Shown piece after piece: positions 4,737-18,601 of a DNA stretch of 36,511 bases; positions within the stretch are counted from its first letter, which is position 1; each line of letters starts with the position of its first letter. The stretch spans positions 1 through 36,511 of the forward strand of contig JAUSHV010000004.1 in NCBI GenBank assembly GCA_030648495.1, in the 5' to 3' direction. The notes under the pieces were generated by a model. It searched no databases. It was not told the origin of the DNA and saw nothing but the letters and a program-made list of their open reading frames with translations. The DNA is from a bacterium (GTDB lineage: Bacteria; Patescibacteriota; Minisyncoccia; UBA11713; 2-01-FULL-45-33). Position numbers and translations under genes: made by a program.

Positions 4737-4742
4737 GGCAAA

Positions 4743-5033
4743 GTCGGATACTCTCCCCAAGCGGGGTTCCACGGCTGCGAGCTACATGCTCGTCCATAAC
4801 GAAGCTTGGGATTTGAAAACCGCGGACTCGCCGGGCGCCGTCGAAGATACGCGCCGGGCCAGTCCTGACGCAATGGCGAAGGGGGCGCAAATTCAAAAGG
4901 TTTCCTGGGGCCTTTGATTTTTCTGGGGACCTGCACCCCCTTCGCCCAAGTTTTTTTTAAAGCCCTTAAATGGGAAGTCCTTTGAACCATAGAGTTCAAC
5001 AGGGCGGACTCGACTTCGGTCGGGTTTTTTTTT
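4743..5033 (+). ncRNA. Candidate structured RNA 2 (~290 nt), identity unknown; possibly related to RNA 1
   Basis: It has the same promoter module as RNA 1. An analogous long-range helix pairs ggcgaagggggcgca (4875-4889) with tgcacccccttcgcc (4932-4946) and is followed by T8. A second hairpin actcgac-ttcg-gtcgggt with T9 lies at 5008-5033. A further hairpin is gccgggcgc...gcgccgggc. No RBS or plausible ORF is present. Confidence 0.55.
5008..5033 (+). terminator. Rho-independent terminator (UUCG-tetraloop hairpin plus T9)
   Basis: actcgac ttcg gtcgggt followed by ttttttttt. Confidence 0.8.
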
Positions 5034-5044: not shown

Positions 5045-5803
5045 ATGCAATTATCTTGGGGAGCCAAAAAACAAATAAAGTTTTTTACCATATTTGCGTT
5101 AGCTATCTTGGCGATAGTCGCAGGAATAATTTATTTTGTCCGTCCGGAGCAGACCTGTTTTGATAAACACCAGAACCAAGATGAAGAAGGAGTCGATTGC
5201 GGAGGGGCGACTTGTATTCCGTGCTCGAACCAGATCCGTGACATTAATATTTTATGGACGCGCCCTTTCAAGATTACGGACGGCGCCTATGACTTTGCGG
5301 CCTTGGTGGAAAACACGAATTCATTTTTAAAAGCCGCCAAACTGGATTATTTCGTAAAATTTTATGACTCGGAAAATATTTTAATAGCCATCAAAGAAAA
5401 TTCAACCTTTGCCGGCGCAGGCGAAAAATTTGTTATCTTTGAACCCTCCATCATTACCCAGCACCGCATTCCTGTGCGCGCAATTCTTGAGATTGCGAAA
5501 GTTGCCTGGGATAAAGGCGGCAAAATTCCCTTGAAGCTCGATGTGCTTTCCACTAATAAATTCCTAAGCGCTTCTTCTACGCCGTCGAGAGTAGAAGCGG
5601 TTATCAAAAATCAACTGAACGCGGAATACAGCAATATAGAAGCAACTGCAATTTTGTGGGATGCAGGAGACACTGCTCTTGGGGTCTCGCGTACGTTTGT
5701 TGACCGCTTTGATATTGATGAAATCAAAACCCTGACGTTTACTTGGCCGGCGGGAATAAACGGCGTCTCGCGAGTTGAGGTCTTTTTCCGCCAGATGCCA
5801 TGA
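5045..5803 (+). CDS. Membrane-anchored hypothetical protein with the Cys motif CFDKHQNQDEEGVDCGGATCIPC
   Basis: This uses an internal ATG of the track ORF, because the upstream part overlaps the terminator. There is an N-terminal TM helix FFTIFALAILAIVAGIIYFV. The stop overlaps the rodA start (ATGA). Confidence 0.7.
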   Translation: MQLSWGAKKQIKFFTIFALAILAIVAGIIYFVRPEQTCFDKHQNQDEEGVDCGGATCIPCSNQIRDINILWTRPFKITDGAYDFAALVENTNSFLKAAKLDYFVKFYDSENILIAIKENSTFAGAGEKFVIFEPSIITQHRIPVRAILEIAKVAWDKGGKIPLKLDVLSTNKFLSASSTPSRVEAVIKNQLNAEYSNIEATAILWDAGDTALGVSRTFVDRFDIDEIKTLTFTWPAGINGVSRVEVFFRQMP

Positions 5804-6951
5804 GGTTTTTTCGAGGAGTTGATTGGGTGCTGGCCTTATCTGCCGTGGTTTTGTCGCTTTTAGGGCTCGCGGCTATGAAATCTTTTGTTATCGGAAACGG
5901 TTCGACTATTCTCACCGCAAGCGACTATTATTTCAACCGCCAGATTTTATGGCTTATTTTAAGCATTTTGGTTTTTATTACCGCTCTGCTTATTGACTGG
6001 GAATTTTTGAAAACGAACAGTATTATTCTACTTTTTTTCTATTTGGTCGCGCTTGTATTTTTAGCCGTACTTCTCTTGGGAGGAGGCAGTATTGTTAAAG
6101 GAGCGGAGAGTTGGTATAAGGTTTATTCCATAGCTTTACAGCCGGTCGAGCTTATGAAAATTATTCTGGTCCTAGTTTTGGCAAAATATTTTTCTAGGAG
6201 GCACGTTGAGATAGCAAGGTTTTTCCATATTTTTGCTTCCGGTATTTATGCGGCTGTCCCGGTTATTTTAGTTATACTTCAGCCTGATTTCGGTTCGGCT
6301 TTCATAATATCCGCTTTGTGGCTCGGCATGGCATTGATCGGAGGCATTAAAGTGCGCCATATACTTTTATTATTTGGGACGGCAGTAATTGCCGGAGTCC
6401 TTGTTTGGAATTTTGTTTTTCTTCCGTATCAGAAATCCAGGATATTGACATTTCTTGAGCCGGCCAGCGACATTCGCGGAGCAGGGTATCATGCCTTGCA
6501 ATCAACCATCGCAGTAGGGTCCGGAGAAATTTTGGGAAAGGGGATCGGCTTCGGCACGCAGTCGAGGCTTTCATTTTTGCCAGAAAAAGAATCAGATTTT
6601 ATTTTCGCCGCTTTCGCGGAAGAGTGGGGGCTCATCGGAGTGCTCATTATATTTTTATTTTTTGGAATTATGATCTGGCGTATCTTGCGGGCGGGGATTT
6701 ACGGTGAATCTAATTTTGAAAAATTATACGCCGCAGGGCTCGCCATTTTATTTGTCTCGCAAGCTTCTATCCATGTAGGCATGAACATGGGGCTTCTGCC
6801 CATAACCGGCCTTGGTATGCCTTTTATGTCTTATGGTGGCTCAAGTCTCGTCTCATCATTTCTCGCAATCGGCATCTTGGAAAGCTTCTCTATCCGCAAA
6901 AAAGGCATATTCATCGGCATGGAGGAACGATTTAAGGAGGGGGTGTTTTGA
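5800..6951 (+). CDS. rodA: SEDS-family peptidoglycan glycosyltransferase (RodA/FtsW family, RodA-like)
   Basis: A polytopic membrane protein with the motifs QPDFGSA and GYHALQSTIAVGSGEILGKGIGFGTQSRLSFLPEKESDFIFAAFAEEWGLIG. Confidence 0.9.
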   Translation: MRFFRGVDWVLALSAVVLSLLGLAAMKSFVIGNGSTILTASDYYFNRQILWLILSILVFITALLIDWEFLKTNSIILLFFYLVALVFLAVLLLGGGSIVKGAESWYKVYSIALQPVELMKIILVLVLAKYFSRRHVEIARFFHIFASGIYAAVPVILVILQPDFGSAFIISALWLGMALIGGIKVRHILLLFGTAVIAGVLVWNFVFLPYQKSRILTFLEPASDIRGAGYHALQSTIAVGSGEILGKGIGFGTQSRLSFLPEKESDFIFAAFAEEWGLIGVLIIFLFFGIMIWRILRAGIYGESNFEKLYAAGLAILFVSQASIHVGMNMGLLPITGLGMPFMSYGGSSLVSSFLAIGILESFSIRKKGIFIGMEERFKEGVF

Positions 6952-6961
6952 GATTGATTTT

Positions 6962-6991
6962 TAGACAAATTACAATCAAATATGCTATCGT
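6962..6991 (+). promoter_or_regulatory. Candidate promoter TAGACA-N18-TATCGT (TGc-extended), 6 nt upstream of the ATG at 6998
   Basis: tagaca at 6962-6967, tgc then tatcgt at 6986-6991, then ttaaat and the ATG. Confidence 0.4.
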
Positions 6992-6997
6992 TTAAAT

Positions 6998-7153
6998 ATG
7001 GAAGAGATTAAGATAGATAAAATCACAACTGATTCAAAAAATAATATGAAGGAAGAAATAGCAAAACTAATAAAACTTGTGAGATGGATTCTTATCGGGA
7101 TAATTATCATAGGATTCATTTGGCTGCTTGTCTCACCGAATTCGCCTTATTAG
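6998..7153 (+). CDS. Hypothetical 51-aa tail-anchored membrane peptide (MEEIKIDKITTDSKNNMKEEIAKLIKLVRWILIGIIIIGFIWLLVSPNSPY)
   Basis: Translated by hand; below the ORF-track cutoff. It has a C-terminal TM helix and a promoter-like element directly upstream. Confidence 0.4.
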   Translation: MEEIKIDKITTDSKNNMKEEIAKLIKLVRWILIGIIIIGFIWLLVSPNSPY

Positions 7154-7204
7154 ATTTATACACACCGATACAATAACACATCAGTTATTAAAATTTAAGA
7201 AATA

Positions 7205-7399
7205 ATGAAAAATATTATGGTTAATATGACAGCCGAATATATATGTAAAAACTACCATCGCACAAGTTATCCTTACTTGGATATTGAAGCGCAAGAAAAC
7301 AATCAGACAAAACAGACGGAAGCGCATTTGTTGTGTAAAACGTGCGGAGCAGATTTAGAGTTCGATAGAGCAAACGCCTCTCTTAAAACAAAGAAATAA
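7205..7399 (+). CDS. Hypothetical 64-aa protein with sparse Cys/His (C14, H18, C44-x2-C47)
   Basis: ORF only. No clear RBS and no recognisable family. Confidence 0.4.
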   Translation: MKNIMVNMTAEYICKNYHRTSYPYLDIEAQENNQTKQTEAHLLCKTCGADLEFDRANASLKTKK

Positions 7400-7437
7400 T
7401 CATATATTCAAAGGATCGTTTTTAAATCCATGGCGGG

Positions 7438-7466
7438 TTGCAAATTGACTCCCAATATGCTAATAT
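7438..7466 (+). promoter_or_regulatory. Promoter TTGCAA-N17-TAATAT (TGc-extended), 7 nt upstream of the ATG at 7474 (leaderless geometry)
   Basis: ttgcaa at 7438-7443, taatat at 7461-7466, then cttaaat and the ATG. Confidence 0.5.
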
Positions 7467-7473
7467 CTTAAAT

Positions 7474-7722
7474 ATGACAAGTAGCTATCTTCAAAAACAA
7501 CTCGATTATTTTAAATCCAATCAAGACGAGTTCGTAAAGAAATATAAGGGTAAATTTCTTGTAATCAAGGATCAAAAGATACAGGGTATTTATAATACGG
7601 AAATAGAAGCGTATACAGATGCTAAAAAGAAATTTGAGCTCGGTATTTTTTTAATTCAACAATGTTCCCCAGGTCAAGAAAGCTATACACAAACCTTTCA
7701 CTCTCGAGTAGCATTTTTTTGA
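7474..7722 (+). CDS. Small 82-aa protein that partners the downstream aspartic protease (pattern ...KYKGKFLVIKDQKIQGIY..., resembling the small DUF5678-like proteins that accompany such proteases)
   Basis: The internal ATG was chosen because the promoter overlaps the longer ORF start. It lies 4 nt upstream of the protease gene. The family assignment is from memory of the sequence pattern only. Confidence 0.5.
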   Translation: MTSSYLQKQLDYFKSNQDEFVKKYKGKFLVIKDQKIQGIYNTEIEAYTDAKKKFELGIFLIQQCSPGQESYTQTFHSRVAFF

Positions 7723-7726
7723 TTCC

Positions 7727-8287
7727 ATGCAACACCTTGCATTCACTATCCGATATAACGGACGAGCCCGCGTATTATTCAGCAAGGTCAATGTGTGTTT
7801 ACCAATTGCTCTAGAGGAAGCACAAACACAAAAAGTTGAATTTAAAGAATACATTGCGATTTGGGATACGGGCGCTACGCATTCTGCTATAACAAAAAAA
7901 GTTGTAGATGACTTAAAATTGCAACCCACCGGAGTACGAGAGACAAGGCATGCTGGTGGGAAATCCTCAAATAATACATATCTAGTTAATATCGCATTAC
8001 CAAATAAGGTAATGGTTCCTCATGTCCGTGTGACAGAGGTACAACTTATTCCTGACGACAACACTTCAGATGACAAGCAACCCCAACTTTTAATAGGGAT
8101 GGATATAATTGGTCTTGGTGACTTTGCAGTTACTAATGCCAACAATAAAACTACTTTTTCGTTCAGAATTCCGTCTGTTGAGGAAATAGATTTTATACCG
8201 GATACTCAAGAAAATAATGTGATGGAGAATAGCAATAGAAAGGAGCGGCGTGCTTTTGAAGCGAAGAAAAGAAGGGGACTGGTTTAA
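7727..8287 (+). CDS. Retropepsin-like (clan AA) aspartic protease
   Basis: The catalytic motif IAIWDTGATHSAI and the downstream LLIGMDIIG flap/dimerisation-type motif are present. Confidence 0.75.
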   Translation: MQHLAFTIRYNGRARVLFSKVNVCLPIALEEAQTQKVEFKEYIAIWDTGATHSAITKKVVDDLKLQPTGVRETRHAGGKSSNNTYLVNIALPNKVMVPHVRVTEVQLIPDDNTSDDKQPQLLIGMDIIGLGDFAVTNANNKTTFSFRIPSVEEIDFIPDTQENNVMENSNRKERRAFEAKKRRGLV

Positions 8288-8316
8288 GGCGATAGAATTG
8301 TCAGGCAAAAAATTTC

Positions 8317-8430
8317 AGCTCCGGTCTTGTCTCATCTTTTTTAGCAATCGGCATCTTGGAAAGCTTCTCTATCCGCAAAAAAGGCATATTCATCGGCATG
8401 GAAGAGAGGTTCAAGGAAGGCGTGTTTTAA
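8317..8430 (+). pseudogene. Displaced copy of the last 37 codons plus stop of rodA (copy 2)
   Basis: It translates as SSGLVSSFLAIGILESFSIRKKGIFIGMEERFKEGVF*, against GSSLVSSFLAIGILESFSIRKKGIFIGMEERFKEGVF* for the real end at 6838-6951. The central 58 nt (8345-8402) are identical to 6866-6923. The flanks differ almost only at synonymous positions. Confidence 0.85.
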
Positions 8431-8432
8431 CT

Positions 8433-8461
8433 TTGCCGGGCGGCCCGTGAATTGATATCAT
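8433..8461 (+). promoter_or_regulatory. Candidate promoter TTGCCG-N17-TATCAT, 6 nt upstream of the ATG at 8468 (leaderless geometry)
   Basis: ttgccg at 8433-8438, tatcat at 8456-8461, then agactc and the ATG. Confidence 0.45.
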
Positions 8462-8467
8462 AGACTC

Positions 8468-10204
8468 ATGACGACTGAAGAACAGCCCCAATTTATAAAA
8501 GAATTCTCTAGATCAGAATCGCGCGAAGAAAGAGACAGCCTGGCTCAAGAAATTCGTGAAGAACGACGAAAAGCTTTTTCTGCGGAAAATAAAAATTCCG
8601 AAAATAAAAAAGTAGATTCAATAATAAATGCCACTGAAAATTTGAGAGATAATGTTGAAATAAGTAACAATGACAAGGCGTTTCAGGGAAATATTAATAG
8701 CTTGTTGGAGATTAATAGTTTAAAAAGTCAATTTGATGAAAAATCAGGAACAAATGTGACTTTTGAAGAACGCCTCAAAACTCCCATAGGCGGCCGTCAG
8801 GGGTTAGAGGACACAAGGAAAAAGCTATCTGATTTTTATGACAAGGAAAGACAAAAATGGGCGGAAAATCCGTATACCCAAGCGGATATACAAAAATATT
8901 TTAATGAAGAAAACTTAAAATCTCTGTCAGTTGATGATTACGTGCTTTTTTTGAAGCGTTTTCCCGGTAATATGATCACTCATGTTACCAGGCAAGGAAT
9001 TAGGGATCATTACAGTATTGACAATCACATTGCGGGATTAGGAGAATTTCAAAATAATTTTAAGGATATTCTTGAAAAAAAACAGCTAAATTCCGCCATC
9101 GGTATAGAATTACAGGAATCCTCAAAAGAAAAACTAGTTTCTGATTATTTGGACCAGTTCGTGAAAGATATGCAGGAGGCCGGGTATGAACCGGACCGGG
9201 AAAGCGCTATGAGCAGATTGGAATCGAAGCTTGGATACGGCGCAATTAAAGGAAGTGTTTATAATTTTGCGGACCGATCAGCCATACATGTTGCAACAGA
9301 ACAGGTAGCAGATGCCATATATGGGGGCGAAAAAGGGAATGAAATATTTTTTGTTTTTCCGTCCGCCTACGCGGCGTCTCAAATGGAATTCGGCGGCCAA
9401 CTTAAAGATAATGTAGGCGGATCGCATAACGATCAAAGGATTTGGGCGGACCTAAAAAAAGGAATGAGTTTAGACGCAGGTATAGTTTTTATACCTGAAG
9501 AAACCGAAGTAGATGCAAAGACAGGGTCAAAATACGAGTTAGATGAAAATAACAATCCGATCATCATTGAAGAGAATTTAGCGGAGATCAGGAAGCTAAC
9601 TGATTCGGCTGATTTTCAGGAATTTGCCGGTCAATCTATAAAAATTCTTGGAAAAAGTGAAGCAAATCAAAACCTGGAGGAATTAGATGGGCTTCGTAAA
9701 ACTCTAGCAGAAAAATTTGGCATAAAAAATCAATCTATACGGGATTCTGTTTTAAATTATAGATTTTTGCATGAGGTTAAATATGCAGCCGAAGAAAAAG
9801 AGGATTATCGTAAAATAAAGACAGATAAAGAAATTAGCCAAGTTTTAATGGATAAAGAAAATTTATACTTAAAGGCAAAAGACACCGTAAAATCAAAAGA
9901 ATACTGGGAAAATTATTTTGCACAAAATCCGGAAAAGCGACCATCAAAAAGCGTCTATTATAAAGGTAGCGATCCAACAACAGCGCTAAATGAATGGAGA
10001 GAACGAAATGGAATCTCAAAAAGAGCAGAGGATGCGGATTTTGATTTTGAAGAAAATAAAAAAACTGACAAGGAGATAAATGAAAGCCCAGAACAAAGCC
10101 AGTTCATGGCAATTGCAAAAAAAATAATAGATGAGCGATTTCCCGTAAAAATTAAAGAAAAACGATCTACTTCCGATAAAGACGAGCCACCACCGCTTGA
10201 TTAG
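8468..10204 (+). CDS. Hypothetical 578-aa acidic, Lys/Glu-rich soluble protein
   Basis: A long clean ORF with no TM segment or signal peptide and no motif I can assign. Confidence 0.7.
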   Translation: MTTEEQPQFIKEFSRSESREERDSLAQEIREERRKAFSAENKNSENKKVDSIINATENLRDNVEISNNDKAFQGNINSLLEINSLKSQFDEKSGTNVTFEERLKTPIGGRQGLEDTRKKLSDFYDKERQKWAENPYTQADIQKYFNEENLKSLSVDDYVLFLKRFPGNMITHVTRQGIRDHYSIDNHIAGLGEFQNNFKDILEKKQLNSAIGIELQESSKEKLVSDYLDQFVKDMQEAGYEPDRESAMSRLESKLGYGAIKGSVYNFADRSAIHVATEQVADAIYGGEKGNEIFFVFPSAYAASQMEFGGQLKDNVGGSHNDQRIWADLKKGMSLDAGIVFIPEETEVDAKTGSKYELDENNNPIIIEENLAEIRKLTDSADFQEFAGQSIKILGKSEANQNLEELDGLRKTLAEKFGIKNQSIRDSVLNYRFLHEVKYAAEEKEDYRKIKTDKEISQVLMDKENLYLKAKDTVKSKEYWENYFAQNPEKRPSKSVYYKGSDPTTALNEWRERNGISKRAEDADFDFEENKKTDKEINESPEQSQFMAIAKKIIDERFPVKIKEKRSTSDKDEPPPLD

Positions 10205-10231
10205 CACAATCTCTTACTTGTCTGCGATAAT

Positions 10232-10278
10232 GCCTTTTCATCGGCATGGAAGAGAGGTTCAAGGAAGGCGTGTTTTGA
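10232..10278 (+). pseudogene. Displaced copy of the last ~13 codons plus stop of rodA (copy 3)
   Basis: ttcatcggcatggaagagaggttcaaggaaggcgtgttttga encodes FIGMEERFKEGVF*. It has the same synonymous variant pattern as copy 2 and is 40/40 identical to 8388-8427 up to the stop codon. Confidence 0.8.
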
Positions 10279-10280
10279 GG

Positions 10281-10308
10281 TTGACATGAATTTCAAATCC
10301 GCTATCTT
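10281..10308 (+). promoter_or_regulatory. Candidate promoter TTGACA-N16-TATCTT
   Basis: ttgaca at 10281-10286 and tatctt at 10303-10308, about 23 nt before the ATG at 10332. Confidence 0.45.
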
Positions 10309-10331
10309 GTCGTAAGAGGCAAAAAAAGAAA

Positions 10332-10661
10332 ATGCTGAAAAAGAACAAATCTCCAGAAAAAATAATAGAAGAATGGTATAAAGAAAACGAAAACGGAGAG
10401 GGCTTGAAAGAGAAAAATCAACATTTATCTTACGAAAATTTTTTAACAATCGGTTTAGATTTTTTAGAGTGCAAGGCCATGATAGAAACGGCGTTCCCTG
10501 GGGTTAGGGGCTTTATGTTTTCAAAGAAGCAACTGCGTTTTATTGTTGATGCTTCTGTAGATGAAGGTCAGAAGAAGGCTATTCGCGAGACCTGCATCGG
10601 GTTTGTTACGTTAAACAAAATTCTAAAATCTATAAATAAAACTGCTGAGGCAAAACGCTAA
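10332..10661 (+). CDS. Hypothetical 109-aa protein
   Basis: An ORF downstream of a promoter-like element. No family is recognised. Confidence 0.5.
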   Translation: MLKKNKSPEKIIEEWYKENENGEGLKEKNQHLSYENFLTIGLDFLECKAMIETAFPGVRGFMFSKKQLRFIVDASVDEGQKKAIRETCIGFVTLNKILKSINKTAEAKR

Positions 10662-10758
10662 AGCGGTTTTTTATTACAAATTTGGCATGAATTTGACACG
10701 AAATCATTGGGGCTTGACAGGTTTTTGGCGTCTGCTAGGGTAGTGGATAAGACAGGAT

Positions 10759-10787
10759 TTGACACTTTTTTATAAGTTTGCTAATAT
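10759..10787 (+). promoter_or_regulatory. Promoter TTGACA-N17-TAATAT (TGc-extended). A second TTGACA-N16-TAGGGT lies at ~10716-10743.
   Basis: ttgaca at 10759-10764 and taatat at 10782-10787. There are three TTGACA boxes within 90 nt. Confidence 0.55.
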
Positions 10788-10817
10788 AGTCATAATAATA
10801 TGAAAGGAGAATTACCC

Positions 10818-11834
10818 ATGCACCCCGAGGAAGTAACAACTAAGCTTTTCCAGGTATTGCCAAAGAGGACCAAGGATGTACTTGATCAGCGTTTTGGGCT
10901 GGCAAAAAACCCAAACCGGATGACATTAGACGCTATAGGCCAGCGTTATGGCATTACCCGTGAGAGGGTTCGTCAGATTGAAGCGGACGGGCTTAACCGG
11001 ATAAGAAAATCTTCCACTATGACTGATATGAAGCCGGTGTTCGTCGCGCTCGAAAAGTATTTTGAAGACCAGGGAGGCGTTTTGCCGGAAGCGCAGGCTT
11101 TGAATGCTTTGGCGTCGCATCCCAAACACGAAAACCATGTTTATTTTTTGCTCGCCTTGCACGACCCGTTCGTCAGAATGCATGAAAACGAACATATGCA
11201 CGACCGATGGGCTTACGGCAAAGGAGCCGAGGAAAAAGCAGATAAGGTTTTGAAGAACGCGGTTGATTCTTTGCGTAAGATTGGCGCGCCGGTGGAAGAG
11301 AAAAAATTATACGAAGTAATGGCTTCCAGTGCCCAGACTATTTTGGGTTCAGGCGTCGCTTCTGCTGTTTTAGAAAATTGGCTGGGTCTTTCCAAGCTTA
11401 TTGCTAAAAATTATTTCGGTGAATGGGGGCTTACGGAATTTTCTTCCATCAAGCCCAGGGGAATGAAAGATCTTTCTTTCATGGTGCTTTCAAAAAAAGG
11501 CGAACCTATGCATTTTTCTGAAGTAGCCCAAGGCATAGGTAAGCTTATTGGCCGGGGCGTCCATGTGCAGACCGTGCACAATGAACTCATCAAAGACGTG
11601 CGTTTTGTTCTGGTAGGCCGCGGACTTTACGCGCTTAAAGAATGGGGCTATGAGCCGGGCGTAGTGCGCGATGTAATTTCAAATATGCTTAAAAACAACG
11701 GACCTATGGCAAAAGAAAAAATAATCTCCCTGGTTTCCGAGAAGCGGTTCGTCAAACCAAACACAATACTTATAAATTTAGAGAATAAAAAACACTTTAA
11801 AAAGCTGACTGATGGTCGGTACTCTGTTCGATAA
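10818..11834 (+). CDS. DNA-binding protein with an N-terminal sigma-70 region-4-like HTH and a C-terminal HARE-HTH-like winged helix
   Basis: The RBS aaaggaga lies 8 nt before the ATG at 10818. The N-terminus reads VLDQRFGL...MTLDAIGQRYGITRERVRQIEADGLNRIRK. The C-terminus reads MHFSEVAQGI...VHNELIKDVRFVLVGRGLYALKEWGY. Confidence 0.7.
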   Translation: MHPEEVTTKLFQVLPKRTKDVLDQRFGLAKNPNRMTLDAIGQRYGITRERVRQIEADGLNRIRKSSTMTDMKPVFVALEKYFEDQGGVLPEAQALNALASHPKHENHVYFLLALHDPFVRMHENEHMHDRWAYGKGAEEKADKVLKNAVDSLRKIGAPVEEKKLYEVMASSAQTILGSGVASAVLENWLGLSKLIAKNYFGEWGLTEFSSIKPRGMKDLSFMVLSKKGEPMHFSEVAQGIGKLIGRGVHVQTVHNELIKDVRFVLVGRGLYALKEWGYEPGVVRDVISNMLKNNGPMAKEKIISLVSEKRFVKPNTILINLENKKHFKKLTDGRYSVR

Positions 11835-13116: not shown

Positions 13117-15174
13117 GTGAACGACGATCAGAAAATTACATATTTTGGAGAGGCTAATTACCGCAATTTGCAGAGTCGTTTTGGCATCAAAAAAATCGAC
13201 CGTAGGAAGCATATGTATGTGATAGGGAAAACCGGCATGGGCAAGACCACTCTTTTGGAAAACATGGCGATGCAGGATATTCAGTCGGGAGAAGGAATTG
13301 CTTTTATTGATCCGCATGGAGAAACGGCCTATAAATTACTAGATTTTGTTCCCAAAGAGCGCATGAAAGATGTGATTTATTTTGATCCGGCGGACAGTGA
13401 TTTTCCGATCGGATTCAACGTTATGGAAAATGTTGATCCGGACCGAAGGCATTTTATTGCTTCCGGACTTATGGGAGTTTTCAAAAAAATATTCGGACCA
13501 GATGTATGGTCTGCTCGTATGGAATATATTTTAGGAAATACGGTTTTGGCGCTTCTTGAGTATCCGAATTCTACTCTTCTATCAATAAACCCAATGCTTG
13601 CGGTAAAAGAATACAGAAAAAAAGTTGTTGACAATGTTACCGACCCGGTTATAAAAGCTTTTTGGACGCAGGAGTTTGCGAAATACACAGAACGCTTTGC
13701 TGCTGAAGCTACGCCGGCAATTCAAAATAAAGTCGGACAGTTTACTTCGAACGCACTCATTCGCAATATAATAGGCCAGCCAAAATCAACATTTGATTTC
13801 AGAAAAGCGATGGACGAGAAAAAAATTCTTATAATCAATCTGGCAAAAGGGAGGGTTGGAGAAGACGCTTCAAGGCTTTTGGGCGCGATGATAGTGACGA
13901 AACTTTATTTGGCCGCCATGAGCCGCGTGGATATTGAAGACGAAGAGCACAGGCCAGACTTTTATTTATATGTTGATGAGTTCCAGAATTTTGCGACGGA
14001 GTCTTTCGCTAATATTTTATCGGAGGCCAGGAAATACCGCCTTTGTCTGATACTCGCGCACCAATATATGGCCCAGCTTGCCGAGGAGGTAAGAGACGCG
14101 GTGGTCGGCAACGTGGGCACAATGGTTTCTTTCAGAGTTGGCGCGGAAGACGCGGAATTTTTGGAAAAGGAATTTGGCCCCGATTTTATGGCAACAGACA
14201 TAGTCAATCTGGGATTTGCGCAGGTTTATTTGAAATTAATGATAGACGGCGTGGCTTCCCATCCATTTTCTTCAACAACTTTGCCGCCGATACAGGTTCC
14301 TCATGAATCGTTTAAAGCTGAAATTGTCGCACTTTCTCGAAAGCAATTTGGCACTCCCCGCCAAAAAGTTGATGATATGATTAATGAGTGGTCAAAGACT
14401 ATCTCCGGCGAGATCGGTGAAAAAAAATCTTTTGGCGGAGCGATGGCCAGTCCCGGCGCATCTGCCCACGCAAATACATCAAATCCTGCAAGTTTTGCGC
14501 CTCCGCGGCAGGACATTTCGCAAGCCCGCCTGCCGGACGGGCAGGTTAAAATGTATGATGCGGTATGTGTTGTTTGCAATAAAAAGATACAAGTTCCTTT
14601 TTTGCCCGATCCAAACCGTCCGGTTTTTTGTAAAGACCATATTGGGCTTGCGGGAGAATATAAAGCTAAAACCCGCCTGAATGAATCGGTCGGGCAGATG
14701 CCTGCCCGCAATGCAACTGGTGCAGGCGGGCCGCAACGCCCCACAGAACCGCAGCGCTCAGAACTGCCTCAGGAACCGCGCTTCACAAGACCAGAACCAA
14801 GGCCCGCGCCCCGCCCGATGGACTCGCCCGCAGGGCTACGCCCGAGAGCAGGCGAATTTGTTGCGCGTTTGCCTGTCAATCAGGCAGGGCCAAGGATAGA
14901 ACAACGCGCGTCATTAAAAGACTTAGAGCCGGCGCGGGACGGGGCTTCGCAAGATGAGCGTCATCAACAATTTTCCCGGCCACGGTTCGAGCAACCCTTC
15001 AAGAAAAATGAAAATCTCCAGGCATTGCGCGAAGCGTTGAAAAAATCAATGGAATCGACGCGCGAAGAAAAACAAGAAGAAAAAATAACTCCGGAAATAA
15101 AACCTCAAGCGCCGATACAAAATAATTCTTCTACCTCCGGCACCCTCCGCCCCGGCGAGAGAATCGAGCTATAG
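13117..15174 (+). CDS. VirD4/TraD/TrwB-like (type IV coupling protein / FtsK-HerA superfamily) ATPase without its own TM segment, with a Pro/Arg/Gln-rich C-terminal tail containing a zinc-ribbon-like motif
   Basis: Walker A VIGKTGMGKTT; FIDPHGE; Walker B FYLYVDEFQNFAT; ARKYRLCLILAHQYMAQL. The C-terminus has CVVCNKKIQVPFLPDPNRPVFCKDH. The start codon is GTG. Confidence 0.75.
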   Translation: MNDDQKITYFGEANYRNLQSRFGIKKIDRRKHMYVIGKTGMGKTTLLENMAMQDIQSGEGIAFIDPHGETAYKLLDFVPKERMKDVIYFDPADSDFPIGFNVMENVDPDRRHFIASGLMGVFKKIFGPDVWSARMEYILGNTVLALLEYPNSTLLSINPMLAVKEYRKKVVDNVTDPVIKAFWTQEFAKYTERFAAEATPAIQNKVGQFTSNALIRNIIGQPKSTFDFRKAMDEKKILIINLAKGRVGEDASRLLGAMIVTKLYLAAMSRVDIEDEEHRPDFYLYVDEFQNFATESFANILSEARKYRLCLILAHQYMAQLAEEVRDAVVGNVGTMVSFRVGAEDAEFLEKEFGPDFMATDIVNLGFAQVYLKLMIDGVASHPFSSTTLPPIQVPHESFKAEIVALSRKQFGTPRQKVDDMINEWSKTISGEIGEKKSFGGAMASPGASAHANTSNPASFAPPRQDISQARLPDGQVKMYDAVCVVCNKKIQVPFLPDPNRPVFCKDHIGLAGEYKAKTRLNESVGQMPARNATGAGGPQRPTEPQRSELPQEPRFTRPEPRPAPRPMDSPAGLRPRAGEFVARLPVNQAGPRIEQRASLKDLEPARDGASQDERHQQFSRPRFEQPFKKNENLQALREALKKSMESTREEKQEEKITPEIKPQAPIQNNSSTSGTLRPGERIEL

Positions 15175-15222
15175 ACAAAAATAACAGGGTGTGCTAGACT
15201 ATTGTAAGAAAGGGGAATCAGT

Positions 15223-15540
15223 ATGGATCCTGCGAATTTGATAGGGGTTTACGTAATGTCAGTTTTTCTCTCATTCTTTTTGGGTGTTTTTATTAGCACA
15301 ATTCCTTTGTGGATTCCTGCAATTCTAGAAAGCATAAGAAACCGCGTGAGGGATAAGAAGATTTATAACTATTTGAGTTCTTTAAATAAGGGGACACTAA
15401 GCGATAACGAAAGAGAAAGTTTTTTAGCCCAATATGGCCATGAAGTTGGCTTACAAACTCCATCGCATTTAAAATGCGGGAATTCAAAATGCGGTTGCAA
15501 CTTTGTTAAAGTTTCTCATCATATGTTTTGGTATGGATGA
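15223..15540 (+). CDS. Cassette 1: hypothetical 105-aa protein with an N-terminal TM region and a Cys-rich C-terminus (CGNSKCGC)
   Basis: The promoter TAGACA(15172-15177)-N17-TAGACT(15195-15200) overlaps the ATPase stop codon. The RBS is aaagggga. A hairpin at 15550-15577 is followed by a T-tract. Confidence 0.6.
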   Translation: MDPANLIGVYVMSVFLSFFLGVFISTIPLWIPAILESIRNRVRDKKIYNYLSSLNKGTLSDNERESFLAQYGHEVGLQTPSHLKCGNSKCGCNFVKVSHHMFWYG

Positions 15541-15575
15541 ATGTTGTTGGCCGGTTGAGCGATATCGCTTGCCGG

Positions 15576-15690
15576 CTTTTATTTTTTCTCGGCACGTTCT
15601 ACGTATTCGCCGGTTTATCTTCTCTAATTCGCGCGAATTAGAGATATAGTCGAAATGCTGGACAAAAATAGTAATTCTATGTTATTCTTT
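15576..15690 (+). repeat. Junction repeat R1: efp 3'-end copy (15579-15611), a perfect 24-bp palindrome (15621-15644) and a promoter module TGGACA-N18-TATTCT
   Basis: The reverse complement of 15579-15611 is ggc gaa tac gta gaa cgt gcc gag aaa aaa taa, encoding GEYVERAEKK*. The palindrome is tctctaattcgc|gcgaattagaga. Confidence 0.85.
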
Positions 15691-15723
15691 ATCAAGAACA
15701 GGATCAAGAAAAGGAAGGTTTTT

Positions 15724-16023
15724 ATGGATAAAGAAGGGTTCGCAAAGAAGCTCGTTGATAAAGGGGTTTCAGATAGAATGGCTTTTAAGGCGCTTTTAGA
15801 GTATTTAAGAAAAGCTCCTGCAGAGGACGAAGAATTTTCTAAATTTGTGGCATCACAGCGCCCGGAGGTCTGGAAAAAATTTACTGAATACGTTACTGAT
15901 GGGCACGAATATTGCTGCGGTCCAAACACCATTCAGGACAACGACAGTCATTTAGTCAAAGCATATAAAAGTATGCGGGCTTTTTGCTCGAGAATTAAAT
16001 GGTTTTTAAAATATGGCGAGTAA
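15724..16023 (+). CDS. Cassette 2: hypothetical 99-aa soluble protein
   Basis: This uses the internal ATG preceded by aaaaggaagg. The upstream part of the track ORF overlaps the promoter module. The terminator aaaccgc-attta-gcgggttt with a T-tract lies at 16024-16056. Confidence 0.55.
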   Translation: MDKEGFAKKLVDKGVSDRMAFKALLEYLRKAPAEDEEFSKFVASQRPEVWKKFTEYVTDGHEYCCGPNTIQDNDSHLVKAYKSMRAFCSRIKWFLKYGE

Positions 16024-16042
16024 AAAAACCGCATTTAGCGGG

Positions 16043-16143
16043 TTTTTATTTTTTCTCCGTGCGTTTATTTATGTTCTCTAATTCGCGCGAATAGGAGAAT
16101 AGTAAATCGAGCTATAGACAAAAATAACAGGGTGTGCTAGGAA
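16043..16143 (+). repeat. Junction repeat R2: a degenerate efp tail (16046-16066), an imperfect palindrome (16075-16098), and the ATPase 3' end plus promoter (16105-16143)
   Basis: 16105-16140 is 36/36 identical to 15162-15197 (aatcgagctatagacaaaaataacagggtgtgctag). Confidence 0.85.
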
Positions 16144-16168
16144 TTTAGGAAGAGGAGGGTGAATAAAT

Positions 16169-16495
16169 ATGAAAAAATACACAGGTTTTTTATTGGGATT
16201 GCTCTTTTTTCTTATCGCATCACCGACGAAAGCGGAAGTAGTGGTTGATAATGGAAATTATGCATATATTCGCTTGCGTAAATCAAATTGCGATGGCAAT
16301 CTTGGGCTGACGTTGTCAGTAGAAATTGATGCTTGGGTTAAATCCAAGCAAGAGATTTTTAAACGAGAATCAAAAGAGACGCTTAGAACAAAGGTTCTTA
16401 AAATACAATCAACGGCGCCTCAACTTGAAATAGGATGTTTTGGTTCGTTTGTTTCCGCCGTGGTCGGCATACATATTTTTTATAGCAAAGACTAG
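16169..16495 (+). CDS. Cassette 3: hypothetical secreted 108-aa protein
   Basis: The RBS is gaggagggtg. The signal peptide is MKKYTGFLLGLLFFLIASPTKAEV. A hairpin with a T-tract lies at 16505-16537. Confidence 0.65.
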   Translation: MKKYTGFLLGLLFFLIASPTKAEVVVDNGNYAYIRLRKSNCDGNLGLTLSVEIDAWVKSKQEIFKRESKETLRTKVLKIQSTAPQLEIGCFGSFVSAVVGIHIFYSKD

Positions 16496-16522
16496 TTTTT
16501 TAGAGCCGTTACTTGTTAGCGG

Positions 16523-16622
16523 CTTTTATTTTTTTTCGGCGCGTTCCCTTTTCTCTAATTCGCGCGAATAGGCGAATAGTAAATCGAGCTATAGACAAGA
16601 ATAGTAGAGCGTGCTAGGAATG
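16523..16622 (+). repeat. Junction repeat R3: efp tail (16526-16546, same allele type as the real efp end), an imperfect palindrome (16552-16575), and a diverged ATPase 3' end plus promoter (16582-16620)
   Basis: ttattttttttcggcgcgttc is identical to 18026-18046. The diverged part reads aatcgagctatagacaagaatagtagagcgtgctag. Confidence 0.85.
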
Positions 16623-16642
16623 TATGCAGAAAGGAGATTTTC

Positions 16643-17074
16643 GTGAAAAAAATAAATAAAGGTTACGGTGCTTTAATCGTATTACTGGCTCTGTTTTTTG
16701 CATCTGCTGTTTATGCGCACCCATTGCATTGGCCGCGAGGAGTGCCAGCAGGGGCAGTAATTGTAGCCGGAGAAGTGGTTGAAAAACCTTTCGTTTGGCC
16801 GGAAACCGGTGTACAGGTTTTGAAAATCAAAAATTCGGCTGATTGTAGTTTCGTTGGGATGTATAGCGATACTGTATATAAAGTTAATAAAGGCGACTAT
16901 GTTGTAGTGTATGGAATAATCGGAGGTCCAGATGTTCAAATTTACAATTTAGTCAAAATTACTCGCAGCATAGAATTAGGTGAGAAAAATCTTACTGCCA
17001 ACAAGGAATTTGGAGAGTTTCATCTTTCTTTTGGTCAGTGTGGTAATAAAGTCCCGAGCGTTCCTGTAAAATAA
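16643..17074 (+). CDS. Cassette 4: hypothetical secreted 143-aa protein (GTG start)
   Basis: The RBS is aaaggaga. The signal peptide is MKKINKGYGALIVLLALFFASAVYAHP. A hairpin overlapping the stop codon is followed by a T-tract (17056-17092). Confidence 0.65.
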   Translation: MKKINKGYGALIVLLALFFASAVYAHPLHWPRGVPAGAVIVAGEVVEKPFVWPETGVQVLKIKNSADCSFVGMYSDTVYKVNKGDYVVVYGIIGGPDVQIYNLVKITRSIELGEKNLTANKEFGEFHLSFGQCGNKVPSVPVK

Positions 17075-17080
17075 GGAGCG

Positions 17081-17210
17081 CTTTTATTTTTTCTCGGCAC
17101 GTCCTAAAAATAACAAAATCAAATTAATTTGCTATAGCAGATTAATCGGTAATTGATATTTCGTATTGTAACCGTGCTCTAGATAAAAATGTGGTGGCAT
17201 GCTAGCCTTA
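17081..17210 (+). repeat. Junction repeat R4: efp tail (17084-17103), a diverged linker, and the promoter TAGATA-N17-TAGCCT (17180-17208)
   Basis: ttattttttctcggcacgtcc encodes (G)RAEKK* on the reverse strand. The linker has no palindrome copy. Confidence 0.7.
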
Positions 17211-17231
17211 TGTACAGAAAGGAGATATAAG

Positions 17232-17666
17232 GTGGCGAAAAAGATTACTGAAAGAACTAGTTTGAAAAAGGGAGATATCGTACGTTATCCATCGGGAGAC
17301 GAGTTTTTTGTGGGGATTGTTGTGCGGCGTGAAAAATTTTTAGGGAGAGACGGTTTTTATGCTTTTAGGCGCCACCCTGATGACGAAACAGATAAAGAGT
17401 TAAAGAAGGAAGGAGTTGATTTGTATCAGCGATTGCATATAAAAGATTTAGCTCGCATAACAGCAGAATTAATCGAGCCAGCTGAACTTATGCTTATGTA
17501 CCGAAATGCTCAGACAACGATAGCAAGTTTGAAGTACGAACTTGTTCCTTGTCAAAACGATACACTGGAAAATTGTCTCAAGAAACGGGGGCAATTGATC
17601 GAAAAGATAAAAAAATACGACGAAAAAATCGATGAAATAAGAGGCGATACTCTTGTAACGATCTAA
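17232..17666 (+). CDS. Cassette 5: hypothetical 144-aa soluble protein (GTG start)
   Basis: The RBS aaaggaga lies 6 nt before the GTG. The track ATG at 17199 lies inside the promoter. The terminator acccag-ctat-ctgggt with a T-tract is at 17687-17720. Confidence 0.6.
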   Translation: MAKKITERTSLKKGDIVRYPSGDEFFVGIVVRREKFLGRDGFYAFRRHPDDETDKELKKEGVDLYQRLHIKDLARITAELIEPAELMLMYRNAQTTIASLKYELVPCQNDTLENCLKKRGQLIEKIKKYDEKIDEIRGDTLVTI

Positions 17667-17703
17667 TAAAGAAATATAAAAATGAAAAACCCAGCTATCT
17701 GGG

Positions 17704-17755
17704 TTTTTTTATTTTTTCTCGGCACTGGACAAAAATTTTATGGTATGCTAGGAAT
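17704..17755 (+). repeat. Junction repeat R5: a short efp tail (17709-17725) fused directly to the promoter TGGACA-N17-TAGGAA (17726-17754)
   Basis: ttattttttctcggcac encodes AEKK* on the reverse strand. The sequence then continues tggacaaaaattttatggtatgctaggaa. Confidence 0.75.
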
Positions 17756-17782
17756 ATAGATAGAAAGGAGGATAGTAGCGTT

Positions 17783-17971
17783 ATGTTTATCGACGATTAT
17801 AGAGACGATGACGTTTCTCCTGAAGCTCTATTGGCGCGTAGAGGTGTACCATTGGAAAAGGACAAGATTACTGACCCTCAAGCCTTGCTAGTTCTGGCTT
17901 ATGGCGGCTCTCGAGATAAAGCTATCGCAATTCAAAATGCCAATCGGCTCCAATCGCTATTACGAACTTGA
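17783..17971 (+). CDS. Cassette 6: hypothetical 62-aa protein
   Basis: The RBS is aaaggagga. The terminator cctcgctg-tcaa-cggcgggg (18003-18022) uses the efp stop-codon region as its T-tract. Confidence 0.5.
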   Translation: MFIDDYRDDDVSPEALLARRGVPLEKDKITDPQALLVLAYGGSRDKAIAIQNANRLQSLLRT

Positions 17972-18025
17972 ACATCGACAAAATTTTAAGTGTTCCCTAT
18001 ACCCTCGCTGTCAACGGCGGGGCTT

Positions 18026-18601
18026 TTATTTTTTTTCGGCGCGTTCGACGTATTCACCAATTGAGGTGTTTACGCGGATGGTGTCGCCTTCGTTGATAAA
18101 CATCGGAACTTGCATGTTGAGACCATTTTCTAAAACTACCGTTTTTGAGCCGCCGGTGGCCGTGTCGCCCTTGTATGACGGTGGGGCTTCCACGACTTTG
18201 TAGTCAATTTTTACCGGAAGTTCGATATTGATTATTTTATCGTCAAATTTATATGCGACTACTTCGGTATTTGGAAGCAGGTAAGGGGCTTGGTCGGCGA
18301 TTTGTTCTTCTTTGAAAGAAAAACGATTTTTTAGATTGCCTTTTTCCGCAAACCAATACTCATCTTTATTTTCATATAAAAATACTATTGATTGTTTATC
18401 TATTTCCGCTTCTAGAAAAGCATCACTGCCTTGAAAAGCTTTTTGTACAATTTTGCCTGTAATAAGATTTTTCAGCTTGGTTTGCACCGTCGGTTTTCTT
18501 TGTTGCATGCGCAAAAAAGTATATTCCAAAACAATGTACGGTTCGCCGTCCATTACGAAAAGCACTCCTTTAGTTAAATCAGTATATGACAACATATGCA
18601 A
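18026..18601 (-). CDS. efp: Elongation factor P
   Basis: EF-P fold strings are present: DLTKGVLFVMDGEPYIVLEY..., KVVEAPPSYKGDTATGGSKTVVLENGLNMQVPMFINEGDTIRVNT. An alternative start lies at 18595. Confidence 0.9.
   Translation of the reverse strand: MHMLSYTDLTKGVLFVMDGEPYIVLEYTFLRMQQRKPTVQTKLKNLITGKIVQKAFQGSDAFLEAEIDKQSIVFLYENKDEYWFAEKGNLKNRFSFKEEQIADQAPYLLPNTEVVAYKFDDKIINIELPVKIDYKVVEAPPSYKGDTATGGSKTVVLENGLNMQVPMFINEGDTIRVNTSIGEYVERAEKK

Follow-up and report, generated by a model that had tools for sequence, protein, structure and literature searches.

Three unrelated cassettes of low GC content lie behind the 3′ end of rodA in a 36,511-nt contig (hereafter the window), where they were very probably stacked by a series of recombinational insertions at the end of the gene. 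Insertion is tentatively read here as homology-driven, of the RecA type, with duplicated gene ends serving as portable homology, in preference to the action of an integrase in trans. The cassettes are non-autonomous, each made up of one to four small genes with a promoter but without a recombinase. The preliminary description of this arrangement was confirmed as a whole by a repeat search, a codon comparison and a degenerate-pattern scan.

The rodA Gene and Its Displaced Ends

The insertion target, rodA, is intact (5800..6951; this and all other features of the site lie on the + strand) and encodes a protein of 383 aa with a Pfam match to FTSW_RODA_SPOVE (E = 3e-85) and 84–89% amino-acid identity to the RodA of close relatives. 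Its functional 3′ end, with about 5 nt past the stop, constitutes the left repeat, copy 1 (6838..6956). Copy 2 (8317..8435) is a displaced end of 37 codons and a stop with flanks of a foreign allele, and copy 3 (~10237..10283) is a displaced end of 13 codons, a stop and about 5 nt, all three having been delimited by repeat search and codon comparison. The repeat search aligned 6839–6956 with 8318–8435 at 86% identity over 118 nt and returned a 55-nt family of three copies (6902–6956, 8381–8435, 10229–10283), the homology of copy 3 beginning at ~10237 (TTCATCGG...). A degenerate 40-nt pattern of the rodA tail matched exactly the three copy sites and none of 100 shuffles; the repeats are far above chance expectation. 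The content and sites of the three copies are as first described, with small corrections to their coordinates. Copy 2 lacks an upstream start, and no ORF of at least 30 aa lies in its rodA frame.

Copies 1 and 2 differ across 6847–6948 by 11 bases in 9 codons, and the codon comparison shows each of these changes to be synonymous (P = 6.5e-8 for 0/11 nonsynonymous under neutral change); the copies therefore diverged as working genes. Their stop codons are TGA and TAA, respectively. Within MEERFKEGVF six codons are changed and none nonsynonymously, as had been reported. The claim that the copies differ only at synonymous sites holds over this range but not for the first three codons of the repeat as originally delimited, which read GSS versus SSG and form the uneven left boundary of the homologous stretch. 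One variant is common to copies 2 and 3, again as proposed, with identity over 10237–10276 (the first 40 nt of copy 3) and the stop codon, TAA versus TGA, as the sole difference in the coding part. This AGG/GGC variant matches none of six sampled alleles, which together with the synonymous divergence upholds the derivation of the displaced ends from a different, once-functional rodA allele.

The identical core of copies 1 and 2, previously put at 58 nt, measures 59 nt (6865..6923, equal to 8344–8402; permutation P = 5e-5). It is bordered by diverged sequence on both sides, differs from other rodA alleles at 5–13 of its 59 positions, and is a candidate crossover or conversion tract. Inside it lies the 14-mer TTCATCGGCATGGA, which alignment places in every displaced copy.

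Cassettes in the Window

Cassette 1 (6957..8316, GC 0.35) contains four ORFs, namely a 51-aa membrane peptide (6998–7153) with a weak T4SS_pilin match below the Pfam cut-off, a 64-aa ORF (7205–7399), a DUF5678 protein (7474–7722) and a retropepsin-like aspartic protease (Asp_protease_2, 7727–8287). Copies of the DUF5678–protease module with 83% nucleotide identity exist in unrelated CPR contexts. Cassette 2 (8436..10236, GC 0.37) encodes a single acidic protein of 578 aa (8468–10204, pI 5.05), a member of a widespread CPR family with no match in Pfam, PHROG, NCBIfam, PADLOC or PDB. These gene contents, identified by ORF list and Pfam, agree with the preliminary description, which had counted two stacked islands; the number of cassettes is three, the 109-aa ORF beyond them being variable cargo too. 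Cassette 3 (10284..10712, GC 0.35) comprises this ORF (10332–10661) and a terminator-like hairpin, is without a distal rodA copy, and is bracketed by a 13-nt direct repeat (TTGACATGAATTT at 10281–10293, TTGGCATGAATTT at 10682–10694). It is absent from relatives, homology to L001 restarting at 10733 and a conserved CTTGACAGG boundary lying at 10713. There begins the conserved right border (10713..11834), a promoter region and a Sigma70_r4/HARE-HTH gene, which stands directly 3′ of rodA in empty-site relatives. Two of the three insertions behind rodA left a spare gene-end copy.

The GC content of the cargo, 0.35–0.37, compares with 0.43–0.46 in the flanking genes. Each island had been said to start with its own promoter; consensus promoter-like hexamers do directly follow each rodA-end copy (6948/6962, 8433 and 10281), but hexamer matches are not enriched over shuffles across the region as a whole.

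The rodA Site Among Relatives

The region from rodA to the next conserved gene was compared among relatives in a Giovannonibacteria-like genus. This region is empty in two lineages (L034/L035 and L064), is filled with unrelated cargo in five others (L001, L036, L037, L048-52), and is a real insertion hotspot with cargo turnover. In L002, an independent assembly from another study, four rodA-end copies separate other mini-cassettes, one of which is a DUF4258/DUF2283 pair. Copy d of this array bears a foreign ATCCGC signature versus AATCGC in L002’s own rodA, the repeats extend 70 nt past the stop into a promoter −35 box, three copies have left edges that nearly coincide, immediately after a terminator T-run, and copies a and c have a 130-nt module in common. 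An ancient fixed structure without cargo variation was looked for in the relatives and was not what they displayed; the empty sites, the varied cargo and the separate L002 array therefore leave the originally proposed repeated insertion at the rodA 3′ end standing.

Repeat extents vary from 47 to ~130 nt. The left edges of the five displaced rodA copies of the window and L002 lie at −113, −47, ~−51, −60 and −60 (four of the five between −47 and −60), each abutting unrelated cargo sequence, and all five have in common the region −47 to 0 with the 14-mer invariant.

A Second Array at efp

At a distance of 12 kb from the rodA site, an array of the same architecture occupies 15131..18058. Six copies of the efp 3′ end, in reverse complement and starting at 15571, 16038, 16518, 17076, 17701 and 18018 (the last of these being the gene's own end), separate six small ORFs on the + strand, in keeping with the earlier statement that efp bears the same footprint. 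One copy spans 11 codons with 4 synonymous changes. Three junctions carry a 22-nt palindrome, a copy of the last 4 codons of a TrwB-like gene and a promoter. The repeated junction also contains a duplicate of the end of the gene on the opposite flank. L001, L037 and L048 have retained this junction element.

Possible Mechanisms of Insertion

Under the homology-driven reading, the cassettes would have accreted in tandem behind rodA, one after another, with the two rodA-proximal insertions resulting from one single crossover each between the resident rodA 3′ end and a homologous rodA-end segment on incoming DNA, itself from the rodA locus of another lineage. The crossover would have been focused on the longest identical stretch between the diverged alleles, leaving rodA intact and a spare untranslated gene-end copy on the far side of the cargo, and the same process would be at work at efp. 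Integration may have followed a Campbell-type route from looped-out circles, or an unequal interchromatid route from taken-up linear ‘end-cargo-end’ fragments, as in transformation-induced merodiploids. Natural competence of the lineage is assumed from CPR bacteria generally, and the succession of events, the nature of the intermediate, the enzyme responsible and the way in which DNA entered the cell are all inferred.

Fragments that are partly repeated on the chromosome give rise on transformation to tandem duplications via alternative pairing (PMC3784515). In the merodiploids of Streptococcus pneumoniae, as proposed for rodA, RecA integrates repeat-bearing taken-up DNA unequally, producing a duplication whose junction holds a hybrid repeat, without the need for a site-specific enzyme (PMC3784515). 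Those duplications comprise 100–900 kb of self DNA between IS copies, unlike the rodA units with their 47–130 nt repeats and foreign cargo, and the process is not known from CPR bacteria.

Homology-driven recombination is favoured by the presence in one genome of one architecture at two unrelated targets, by the duplication at efp of the opposite flanking gene's end, by the variable repeat extents and by the absence of integrase or transposase domains from the ~20 cassettes scanned and from the 8–10 kb around the site. Exchange by tyrosine recombinases proceeds over an overlap of 6–8 nt, and the 59-nt tract looks like a crossover or conversion tract and not like a short site-specific overlap; its identity could also stem from later gene conversion between the repeats, which would be silent on the original insertion. 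Against this reading count the restriction of rodA-end arrays to two genomes and the first ‘end-cargo-end’ unit, which pure homologous recombination leaves unexplained and which must have been founded by an illegitimate or site-specific event. A fixed recombination site would also yield the common −47 to 0 region, the 14-mer and the clustered left edges.

Such a site is central to a second, possible but less probable explanation, in which CIME- or integron-like units accreted through a tyrosine or serine integrase acting in trans from a gene elsewhere in the genome or on a transient element, with the rodA-end segment as attP and the crossover in or near TTCATCGGCATGGA. The region and 14-mer common to all displaced copies agree with this, and in a six-allele codon alignment synonymous changes are fewest, across the entire gene, in an 11-codon window that coincides exactly with the same block, although the statistical support for its conservation is marginal and a seventh allele (L064) departs from it. 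The copy 3 junction forms an ATGCC-N8-GGCAT inverted repeat. At other loci, relatives of both larger cargo modules adjoin tRNA genes with duplicated tRNA 3′ ends (L039, L063), tRNA-Tyr and tRNA-Ala beside the close homologues; this is a classic integrase footprint and counts against homology-driven insertion. Precedents are e14 in icd (PMC13626634), CIME accretion (PMC5704250), ssrA islands (PMC3146451) and stacked tycheposons (bioRxiv 10.1101/2020.12.28.424599). Against an integrase, domain scans agree with the preliminary description, which had noted no recombinase gene nearby, in detecting no recombinase in the scanned window ORFs of at least 80 aa and no integrase or transposase in ~20 cassettes across at least seven genomes or within 8–10 kb of the rodA site in relatives. 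Furthermore, the unrelated rodA and efp would require two specificities, the repeats are heterogeneous in extent and far longer than needed, a 6–8-nt overlap exchange would not predict the 59-nt tract, the 13-nt repeat of cassette 3 falls outside the putative core, and none of the viral contigs carries the site.

It is unlikely that the insertions arose by homology-facilitated illegitimate recombination after DNA uptake, a mechanism documented in competent bacteria (PMC3240628), in which a linear ‘rodA...end-cargo’ donor anchored in rodA would have its far end joined illegitimately upstream of the resident stop, displacing the resident gene end as a truncated copy. The differing left edges against unrelated cargo and the signature of another allele in displaced copies fit this, but three L002 copies with nearly one left edge after a T-run would hardly come from independent joins, the 130-nt module of copies a and c implies a reusable unit and not one-off joins, and the 59-nt mosaic core is left unexplained.

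An old, fixed local duplication with repeats retained for a function (e.g., as terminators or regulatory RNA) and no ongoing insertion is very improbable. The efp junction element, with its gene end, palindrome and promoter, is kept across relatives with 71–87% RodA identity, as such a duplication would have it, but close relatives have empty sites and complete cargo turnover, and synonymous-only divergence shows evolution inside working genes, not in decaying or regulatory duplicates. The rodA-end repeats, unlike integron attC, fold no better than shuffles (z = 0 to +2.2), and the only Rfam family matched in the window is rRNA.

Least credible is a chimeric contig assembled from strains that occurred together and differed in rodA allele and downstream cargo. 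In its favour, the source is evidently a metagenome bin, exact repeats of 59 and 40 nt could confuse short k-mer graphs, and no other record contains this exact RodA protein. At the left junctions of copies 2 and 3, however, cargo runs into diverged rodA-like sequence; these junctions are not shared k-mers and therefore cannot be created by a graph mis-join. Four copies also occur in the independent L002 assembly, and the efp junction element in three relatives.

Comparison With Known Systems

Neither the duplication of gene ends by integration nor accretion in tandem is new in principle, both being well documented; unusual here are the tiny, promoter-bearing, recombinase-less cassettes and the two protein-coding targets, rodA and efp. 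In Escherichia coli, the cryptic prophage e14 and phage 21 integrate in the 3′ end of icd, with icdC as the displaced pseudogene (PMC13626634). As at rodA, e14 inserts within the 3′ end of a protein-coding housekeeping gene, an alternative gene end arrives with the incoming DNA and keeps the target intact, and a C-terminal fragment is displaced to the distal side of the insert; the old and new gene ends differ mainly by synonymous changes (PMC13626634). However, e14 is a single prophage of 15 kb that encodes its own integrase and excises on SOS induction, whereas the rodA site has three stacked recombinase-less cassettes of 0.4–1.8 kb and a counterpart at a second target gene.

In the ICE/IME-CIME accretion of ICESt1-related elements of Streptococcus thermophilus, att copies containing the target 3′ end likewise delimit stacked islands, and CIMEs resemble the rodA cassettes in being recombinase-less units kept between att sites (PMC5704250). 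CIMEs are decayed ICEs or IMEs of several kb that depend on the integrase of a related element, whereas the ~20 cassettes compared across genomes are all tiny single-operon units, with no integrase-bearing partner at the site in at least seven genomes. The ssrA islands of Dehalococcoides share with rodA the direct repeats (at least 12) of the 3′ end of a single-copy gene downstream of it, which bound tandem islands that are specific to individual strains and in some cases lack an integration module (PMC3146451); they differ in their RNA gene target, fixed 20-bp repeat, 10-kb scale and, mostly, possession of the serine recombinase DsiB. Prochlorococcus tycheposons are similar in that each new integration at the shared site displaces older elements outward and leaves partial target-gene copies between elements (bioRxiv 10.1101/2020.12.28.424599), but they target tRNA genes and encode tyrosine recombinases and replication modules.

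Chromosomal integrons, like the rodA site, are arrays of small, mostly single-gene cassettes between similar repeats, including toxin-antitoxin-like cassettes, with the recombinase outside the cassettes. No IntI or attI platform was found in the window; the rodA repeats are coding-sense copies of the end of the neighbouring gene, unlike attC hairpins, and the cassettes, unlike those of integrons, have their own promoter-like sites. The host is a tiny-genome (CPR) bacterium, and rodA is a cell-wall gene.

The rodA 3' End and Its Displaced Copies

The window belongs to a CPR/Patescibacteria genome whose nearest relatives are Candidatus Giovannonibacteria bins, and carries an intact rodA gene (5800-6951) encoding a 383-aa FtsW/RodA/SpoVE protein (Pfam). 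The preliminary description had reported that the 3' end of this gene is repeated downstream, and a repeat search confirmed two further copies, both in unchanged orientation. Positions 6839-6956 and 8318-8435 share 86% identity across 118 nt, and a 55-nt repeat family has three members, at 6902-6956, 8381-8435 and 10229-10283. A degenerate 40-nt pattern of the rodA tail matched at these three copies only, with matches in 0 of 100 shuffles.

Copies 1 and 2 differ at 11 bases over 6847-6948, all 11 synonymous (P ~6.5e-8, with ~78% of random changes here expected to be nonsynonymous). The codon comparison thus shows the two copies to have diverged as working genes. In the rodA frame, copy 2 lacks a usable start codon. 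The earlier claim of exclusively synonymous divergence thus holds for this segment but fails for the first three codons of the range then compared, GSS vs SSG, which form the ragged edge of homology. Inside the segment, 59 nt (6865-6923) are identical in both copies while the flanks on either side have diverged (permutation over synonymous-capable sites, P = 5e-5). This identity is not a matter of general conservation, since six further alleles of rodA from the genus differ from the tract at 5-13 positions. Copies 2 and 3 share one variant (AGG for Arg, GGC for Gly), as had been proposed, which is absent from the sampled alleles; the two are identical over 40 nt. Assignment of either copy 1 or copies 2 and 3 as the native allele was abandoned, their distances to relatives being too alike to decide.

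Cassettes Delimited by the Copies

Both islands recognised previously were upheld. Cassette 1 (6957-8316) encodes a 51-aa membrane peptide, a 64-aa ORF and a pair formed by a DUF5678 protein and a retropepsin-like protease, while cassette 2 (8436-10236) encodes a single acidic protein of 578 aa (pI 5.05). The count of two, however, has to be raised. Homology to the closest relatives ends ~21 nt past the rodA stop and does not return until 10733 (10713 counting the conserved motif CTTGACAGG); therefore the 109-aa ORF at 10332-10661 constitutes a third cassette (10284-10712). This one has a 13-nt direct repeat on either side, located outside the TTCATCGGCATGGA region, and no rodA copy behind it. 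The GC content of the cargo is 0.35-0.37, compared with 0.43 in rodA and 0.46 in the conserved downstream genes, and promoter-like consensus hexamers, identified by pattern match only, directly follow every rodA-end copy. In agreement with the preliminary description, which had seen no recombinase nearby, Pfam detected no integrase, resolvase or transposase domain in the scanned ORFs of the window.

The Same Site in Relatives

What lies between rodA and the Sigma70_r4/HARE-HTH gene differs among relatives whose RodA is 84-89% identical. The gap is empty (~105 nt) in contigs L034/L035 and L064, and is occupied by two unknown ORFs in L036, an NYN-domain gene in L037, and an 86-aa ORF, an NYN gene and a 186-aa ORF in L001; in a group with 71% RodA identity (L048-52) the cargo is an unknown ORF of 187/206 aa. 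Apart from the NYN gene of L001 and L037, no cargo was common to different loci or genomes. These empty sites and the turnover of cargo support the proposal of recurrent foreign insertion at the rodA end, and since gap contents differ among relatives, they do not match the fixed structure, unvarying in cargo, that would have spoken against it.

In L002, an independent assembly whose RodA is 86% identical, four rodA-end copies precede the end of the contig and separate three small cassettes, one of them a DUF4258/DUF2283 toxin-antitoxin-like pair on the minus strand. Copies a and c have in common a 130-nt module that extends as far as a TTGACA box, 70 nt beyond the stop. Copy d reads ATCCGC where L002's own rodA has AATCGC, the signature of a foreign allele.

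No recombinase was found by Pfam in the cargo of L001, L002, L036, L048 and L049, and none is annotated within 8-10 kb of the site in L037 and L048-52 (precomputed domains). An exact look-up of the RodA protein found it in no other assembly, and a metagenome scan with the rodA core returned two contigs only, both L001-like, with no further arrays. A phage or plasmid carrier of the site was rejected, as viral-contig DNA scans with the rodA core, a longer rodA block and the efp palindrome, and a protein scan with the 578-aa cargo, gave no match.

The efp Array and the Intervening Cluster

The efp gene (18026-18601, minus strand) has the same architecture as rodA, and the footprint suspected there proved to comprise six copies of its last 5-11 codons, starting at 15571, 16038, 16518, 17076, 17701 and 18018 within an array at 15131-18058. 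Each copy is preceded by the terminator hairpin of a small plus-strand ORF, a different one every time, and the copy at 15574 reads GEYVERAEKK-stop, departing from the real end by four synonymous changes. A perfect 22-nt palindrome (TCTCTAATTCG/CGAATTAGAGA; a TCTCTAATTCGCGAATTAGAGA-like 22-mer) is present at three junctions and absent from the other three. At the same three, the final four codons of the TrwB/VirD4-like ATPase gene, the opposite flanking gene of the array, are copied together with its TAGACA promoter, and this junction element is kept in L001, L037 and L048. Signal-peptide-like N-termini occur in two of the six small ORFs.

Between them, the rodA and efp arrays bracket a conserved cluster (10800-15174) of Sigma70_r4/HARE-HTH, DUF8128 and TrwB/VirD4-like coupling ATPase genes, the ATPase having a treble-clef zinc finger. 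Its gene order is kept in L001, L036, L037 and L048-52.

Proposed Mechanism of Insertion

The anatomy is the classic outcome of a single crossover that inserts DNA at the end of a gene, and this is most probably how it arose. Incoming DNA would carry a homologue of the target's end, by which rodA would be reconstituted; the displaced end would mark the far border of the insert, and repeated insertion would stack inserts. Regarding the process responsible, homology-driven recombination is preferred, albeit tentatively, for several reasons: the 59-nt tract of identity lies between diverged flanks; the repeats are long and variable in extent (47-118 nt in the window), reaching into promoters; rodA and efp, unrelated in sequence, show the same footprint, and at efp the ends of both flanking genes are duplicated; and ~20 cassettes all lack recombinase genes.

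Somewhat less likely, a site-specific integrase acting in trans catalyses insertion. This would agree with the 14-mer TTCATCGGCATGGA, invariant and common to all rodA-end copies (the allele of L064 is without the motif), with the clustering of the left edges of the repeats at -47 to -60, and with the tRNA-end repeats that adjoin related cargo elsewhere. The RKKGIFIGM block is the window of rodA with the least synonymous variation across six alleles; the statistic is marginal, another window comes nearly as low, and a seventh allele, L064, breaks the pattern. A selectively conserved DNA site within rodA was discarded on these grounds.

A broader and unlikely reading is that Giovannonibacteria-like CPR bacteria possess a cassette-capture system other than the integron, in which promoter-bearing one-gene cassettes would use as attachment site a coding-sense copy of a housekeeping gene's final 13-40 codons. 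Cassettes would be mobilised without a recombinase in cis, either by an undiscovered trans-acting enzyme or by DNA uptake and RecA alone, and would form arrays at rodA and efp; the TrwB/VirD4-like DNA-translocase cluster flanked by these two sites might be the import route, and the 578-aa family, which recurs between housekeeping genes or next to tRNA genes, could belong to the mobility machinery. One-sided illegitimate recombination is improbable as the source of the copies, and descent from an old functional duplication highly so. Least credible is an assembly artefact, given that the junctions of cargo with copy do not consist of shared k-mers and that L002 shows the pattern independently.

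The genomes of CPR/Patescibacteria are tiny, and little is understood of their mobile elements. If accessory genes of small size do enter through recombination at the ends of essential genes with no recombinase of the element, strain-level gene turnover in these lineages would be explained, and the rodA and efp ends would provide PCR-testable sites at which to watch gene gain and loss in natural populations. Such arrays also produce apparent 'pseudogene' fragments, which annotation pipelines may misread.

Comparison With Known Systems

Integron arrays combine a small-cassette look with attC structure, intI and promoterless cassettes. The present arrays are integron-like in that small, mostly single-gene cassettes lie between related repeats (three in the window, at least three in L002 and six at efp). 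However, attC sites are imperfect palindromes that fold as single-stranded hairpins, whereas the rodA-end repeats fold no better than shuffles (z -0.67 to +2.2, no long hairpin; copies 2 and 3 and L002 copy c on both strands, copy 1 on the plus strand), and on these grounds the attC reading was rejected. Furthermore, an integron array is headed by intI with attI and Pc, while here rodA takes that place and the scanned ORFs have no integrase domain; nor are the rodA cassettes promoterless, as they carry promoter-like sites.

Tandem accretion of IMEs and CIMEs is another parallel. Direct repeats of the target end bound the islands and the target stays intact, as with the three rodA ends and the intact rodA here, and relatives have empty sites and alternative cargo in both cases. 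In contrast, sites of IME and CIME accretion have a gene for a tyrosine or serine recombinase within one or more islands or next to the site, and none was found here in the scanned ORFs or the cargo scanned in relatives. Their att copies have one common core, for which TTCATCGGCATGGA, shared by all rodA-end copies, would be the candidate; repeat extents vary, however, the repeat of cassette 3 lies outside it and the L064 allele is without the motif. Elements that depend on Xer/dif (IMEX, pdif) have at each junction a dif-like site of 28 nt, with two ~11-nt inverted arms and a 6-nt spacer. The rodA junctions have no such palindrome; of the efp junctions, three carry the perfect 22-nt palindrome and three do not. 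DDE/IS transposons leave a short target duplication of fixed length and have terminal inverted repeats and a transposase, whereas the repeats here are variable; the repeat search found no terminal inverted repeats and the scanned ORFs no transposase domain.

The gene-end logic, synonymous differences included, is that of e14 in icd with its icdC pseudogene (PMC13626634), and stacking as seen here is found in CIME/ICE accretion (PMC5704250), in the Dehalococcoides ssrA islands (PMC3146451) and in tycheposons. For homology-driven recombination there is a documented route, in which transformation with DNA partly repeated in the chromosome yields tandem duplications by alternative pairing (PMC3784515). 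The insertion principle is therefore already known; what is distinctive is the combination of tiny, promoter-bearing, recombinase-less cassettes, two protein-coding targets in one genome and a CPR host.

Cargo Elsewhere in CPR

The DUF5678-protease module occurs in many CPR lineages, with 80-91% protein identity and 83% DNA identity over 7454-8278, although RodA is only ~50% identical in the lineages that share it. Together with its occurrence mostly on 1-2 kb contigs, this suggests a two-gene module that began to spread very recently. Arrays of the present kind break short-read assemblies, as the many homologues on such short contigs illustrate. Contexts are unrelated: the module follows a type III restriction gene, or lies near a tRNA-Ala gene with a duplicated 21-nt 3' end. 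No direct repeats surround it after type III restriction genes in other genomes, the tRNA-Ala 3'-end repeat of contig L063 being the sole repeat found near it elsewhere. There (2742-2896), an exact 21-nt copy of the tRNA 3' end lies 57 nt downstream with a hairpin alone between, and a TIR-like N-terminal gene fragment comes next; the arrangement resembles a scar left by an insertion since excised or decayed. The pair itself (7454-8287 in the window; L053-L063 elsewhere) has a weak PADLOC match to PDC-M08B (E = 0.0017).

The family of the 578-aa protein (8468-10204) is likewise widespread in CPR. Its genes are set into unrelated housekeeping contexts: directly after tRNA-Lys (L043), within a por operon (L045), after gltX (L044) and, in L039, after tRNA-Tyr between repeats of 124-131 nt in which the tRNA 3' end is included. 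A confident AlphaFold model (pLDDT 79.7, pTM 0.76) has no fold match in PDB or viral structure sets, and the sequence has none in Pfam, PHROG, NCBIfam, PADLOC or PDB; a role as recombinase finds no support in these fold and sequence-library comparisons. Many His, Asp and Glu residues are invariant in the family.

In L039, a Niyogibacteria contig, a 124-nt unit occurs three times in tandem behind the tRNA-Tyr gene (within 5386-5843); the unit contains the tRNA 3' end and, in inverted form, the T-arm. It occurs a fourth time (8230-8360) beyond the 595-aa cargo gene, from which a GC-rich non-coding stretch of ~440 nt separates it. Close to the 578-aa family genes, 23S_rRNA_IVP (four-helix-bundle) genes are found within a por operon (L045/L046) and, in L044, between a Glyco_transf_28 (MurG-like) gene and gltX, so that two different unknown genes interrupt the same conserved operons (L044-L046). 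At 1-3706 of the window, the 23S rRNA gene is interrupted by LAGLIDADG homing-endonuclease ORFs (453-941 and 2396-2890), the 5S rRNA lies ~1.7 kb past the annotated 23S end, and a promoter-like 40-nt repeat occurs at 4325-4364 and 4709-4748.
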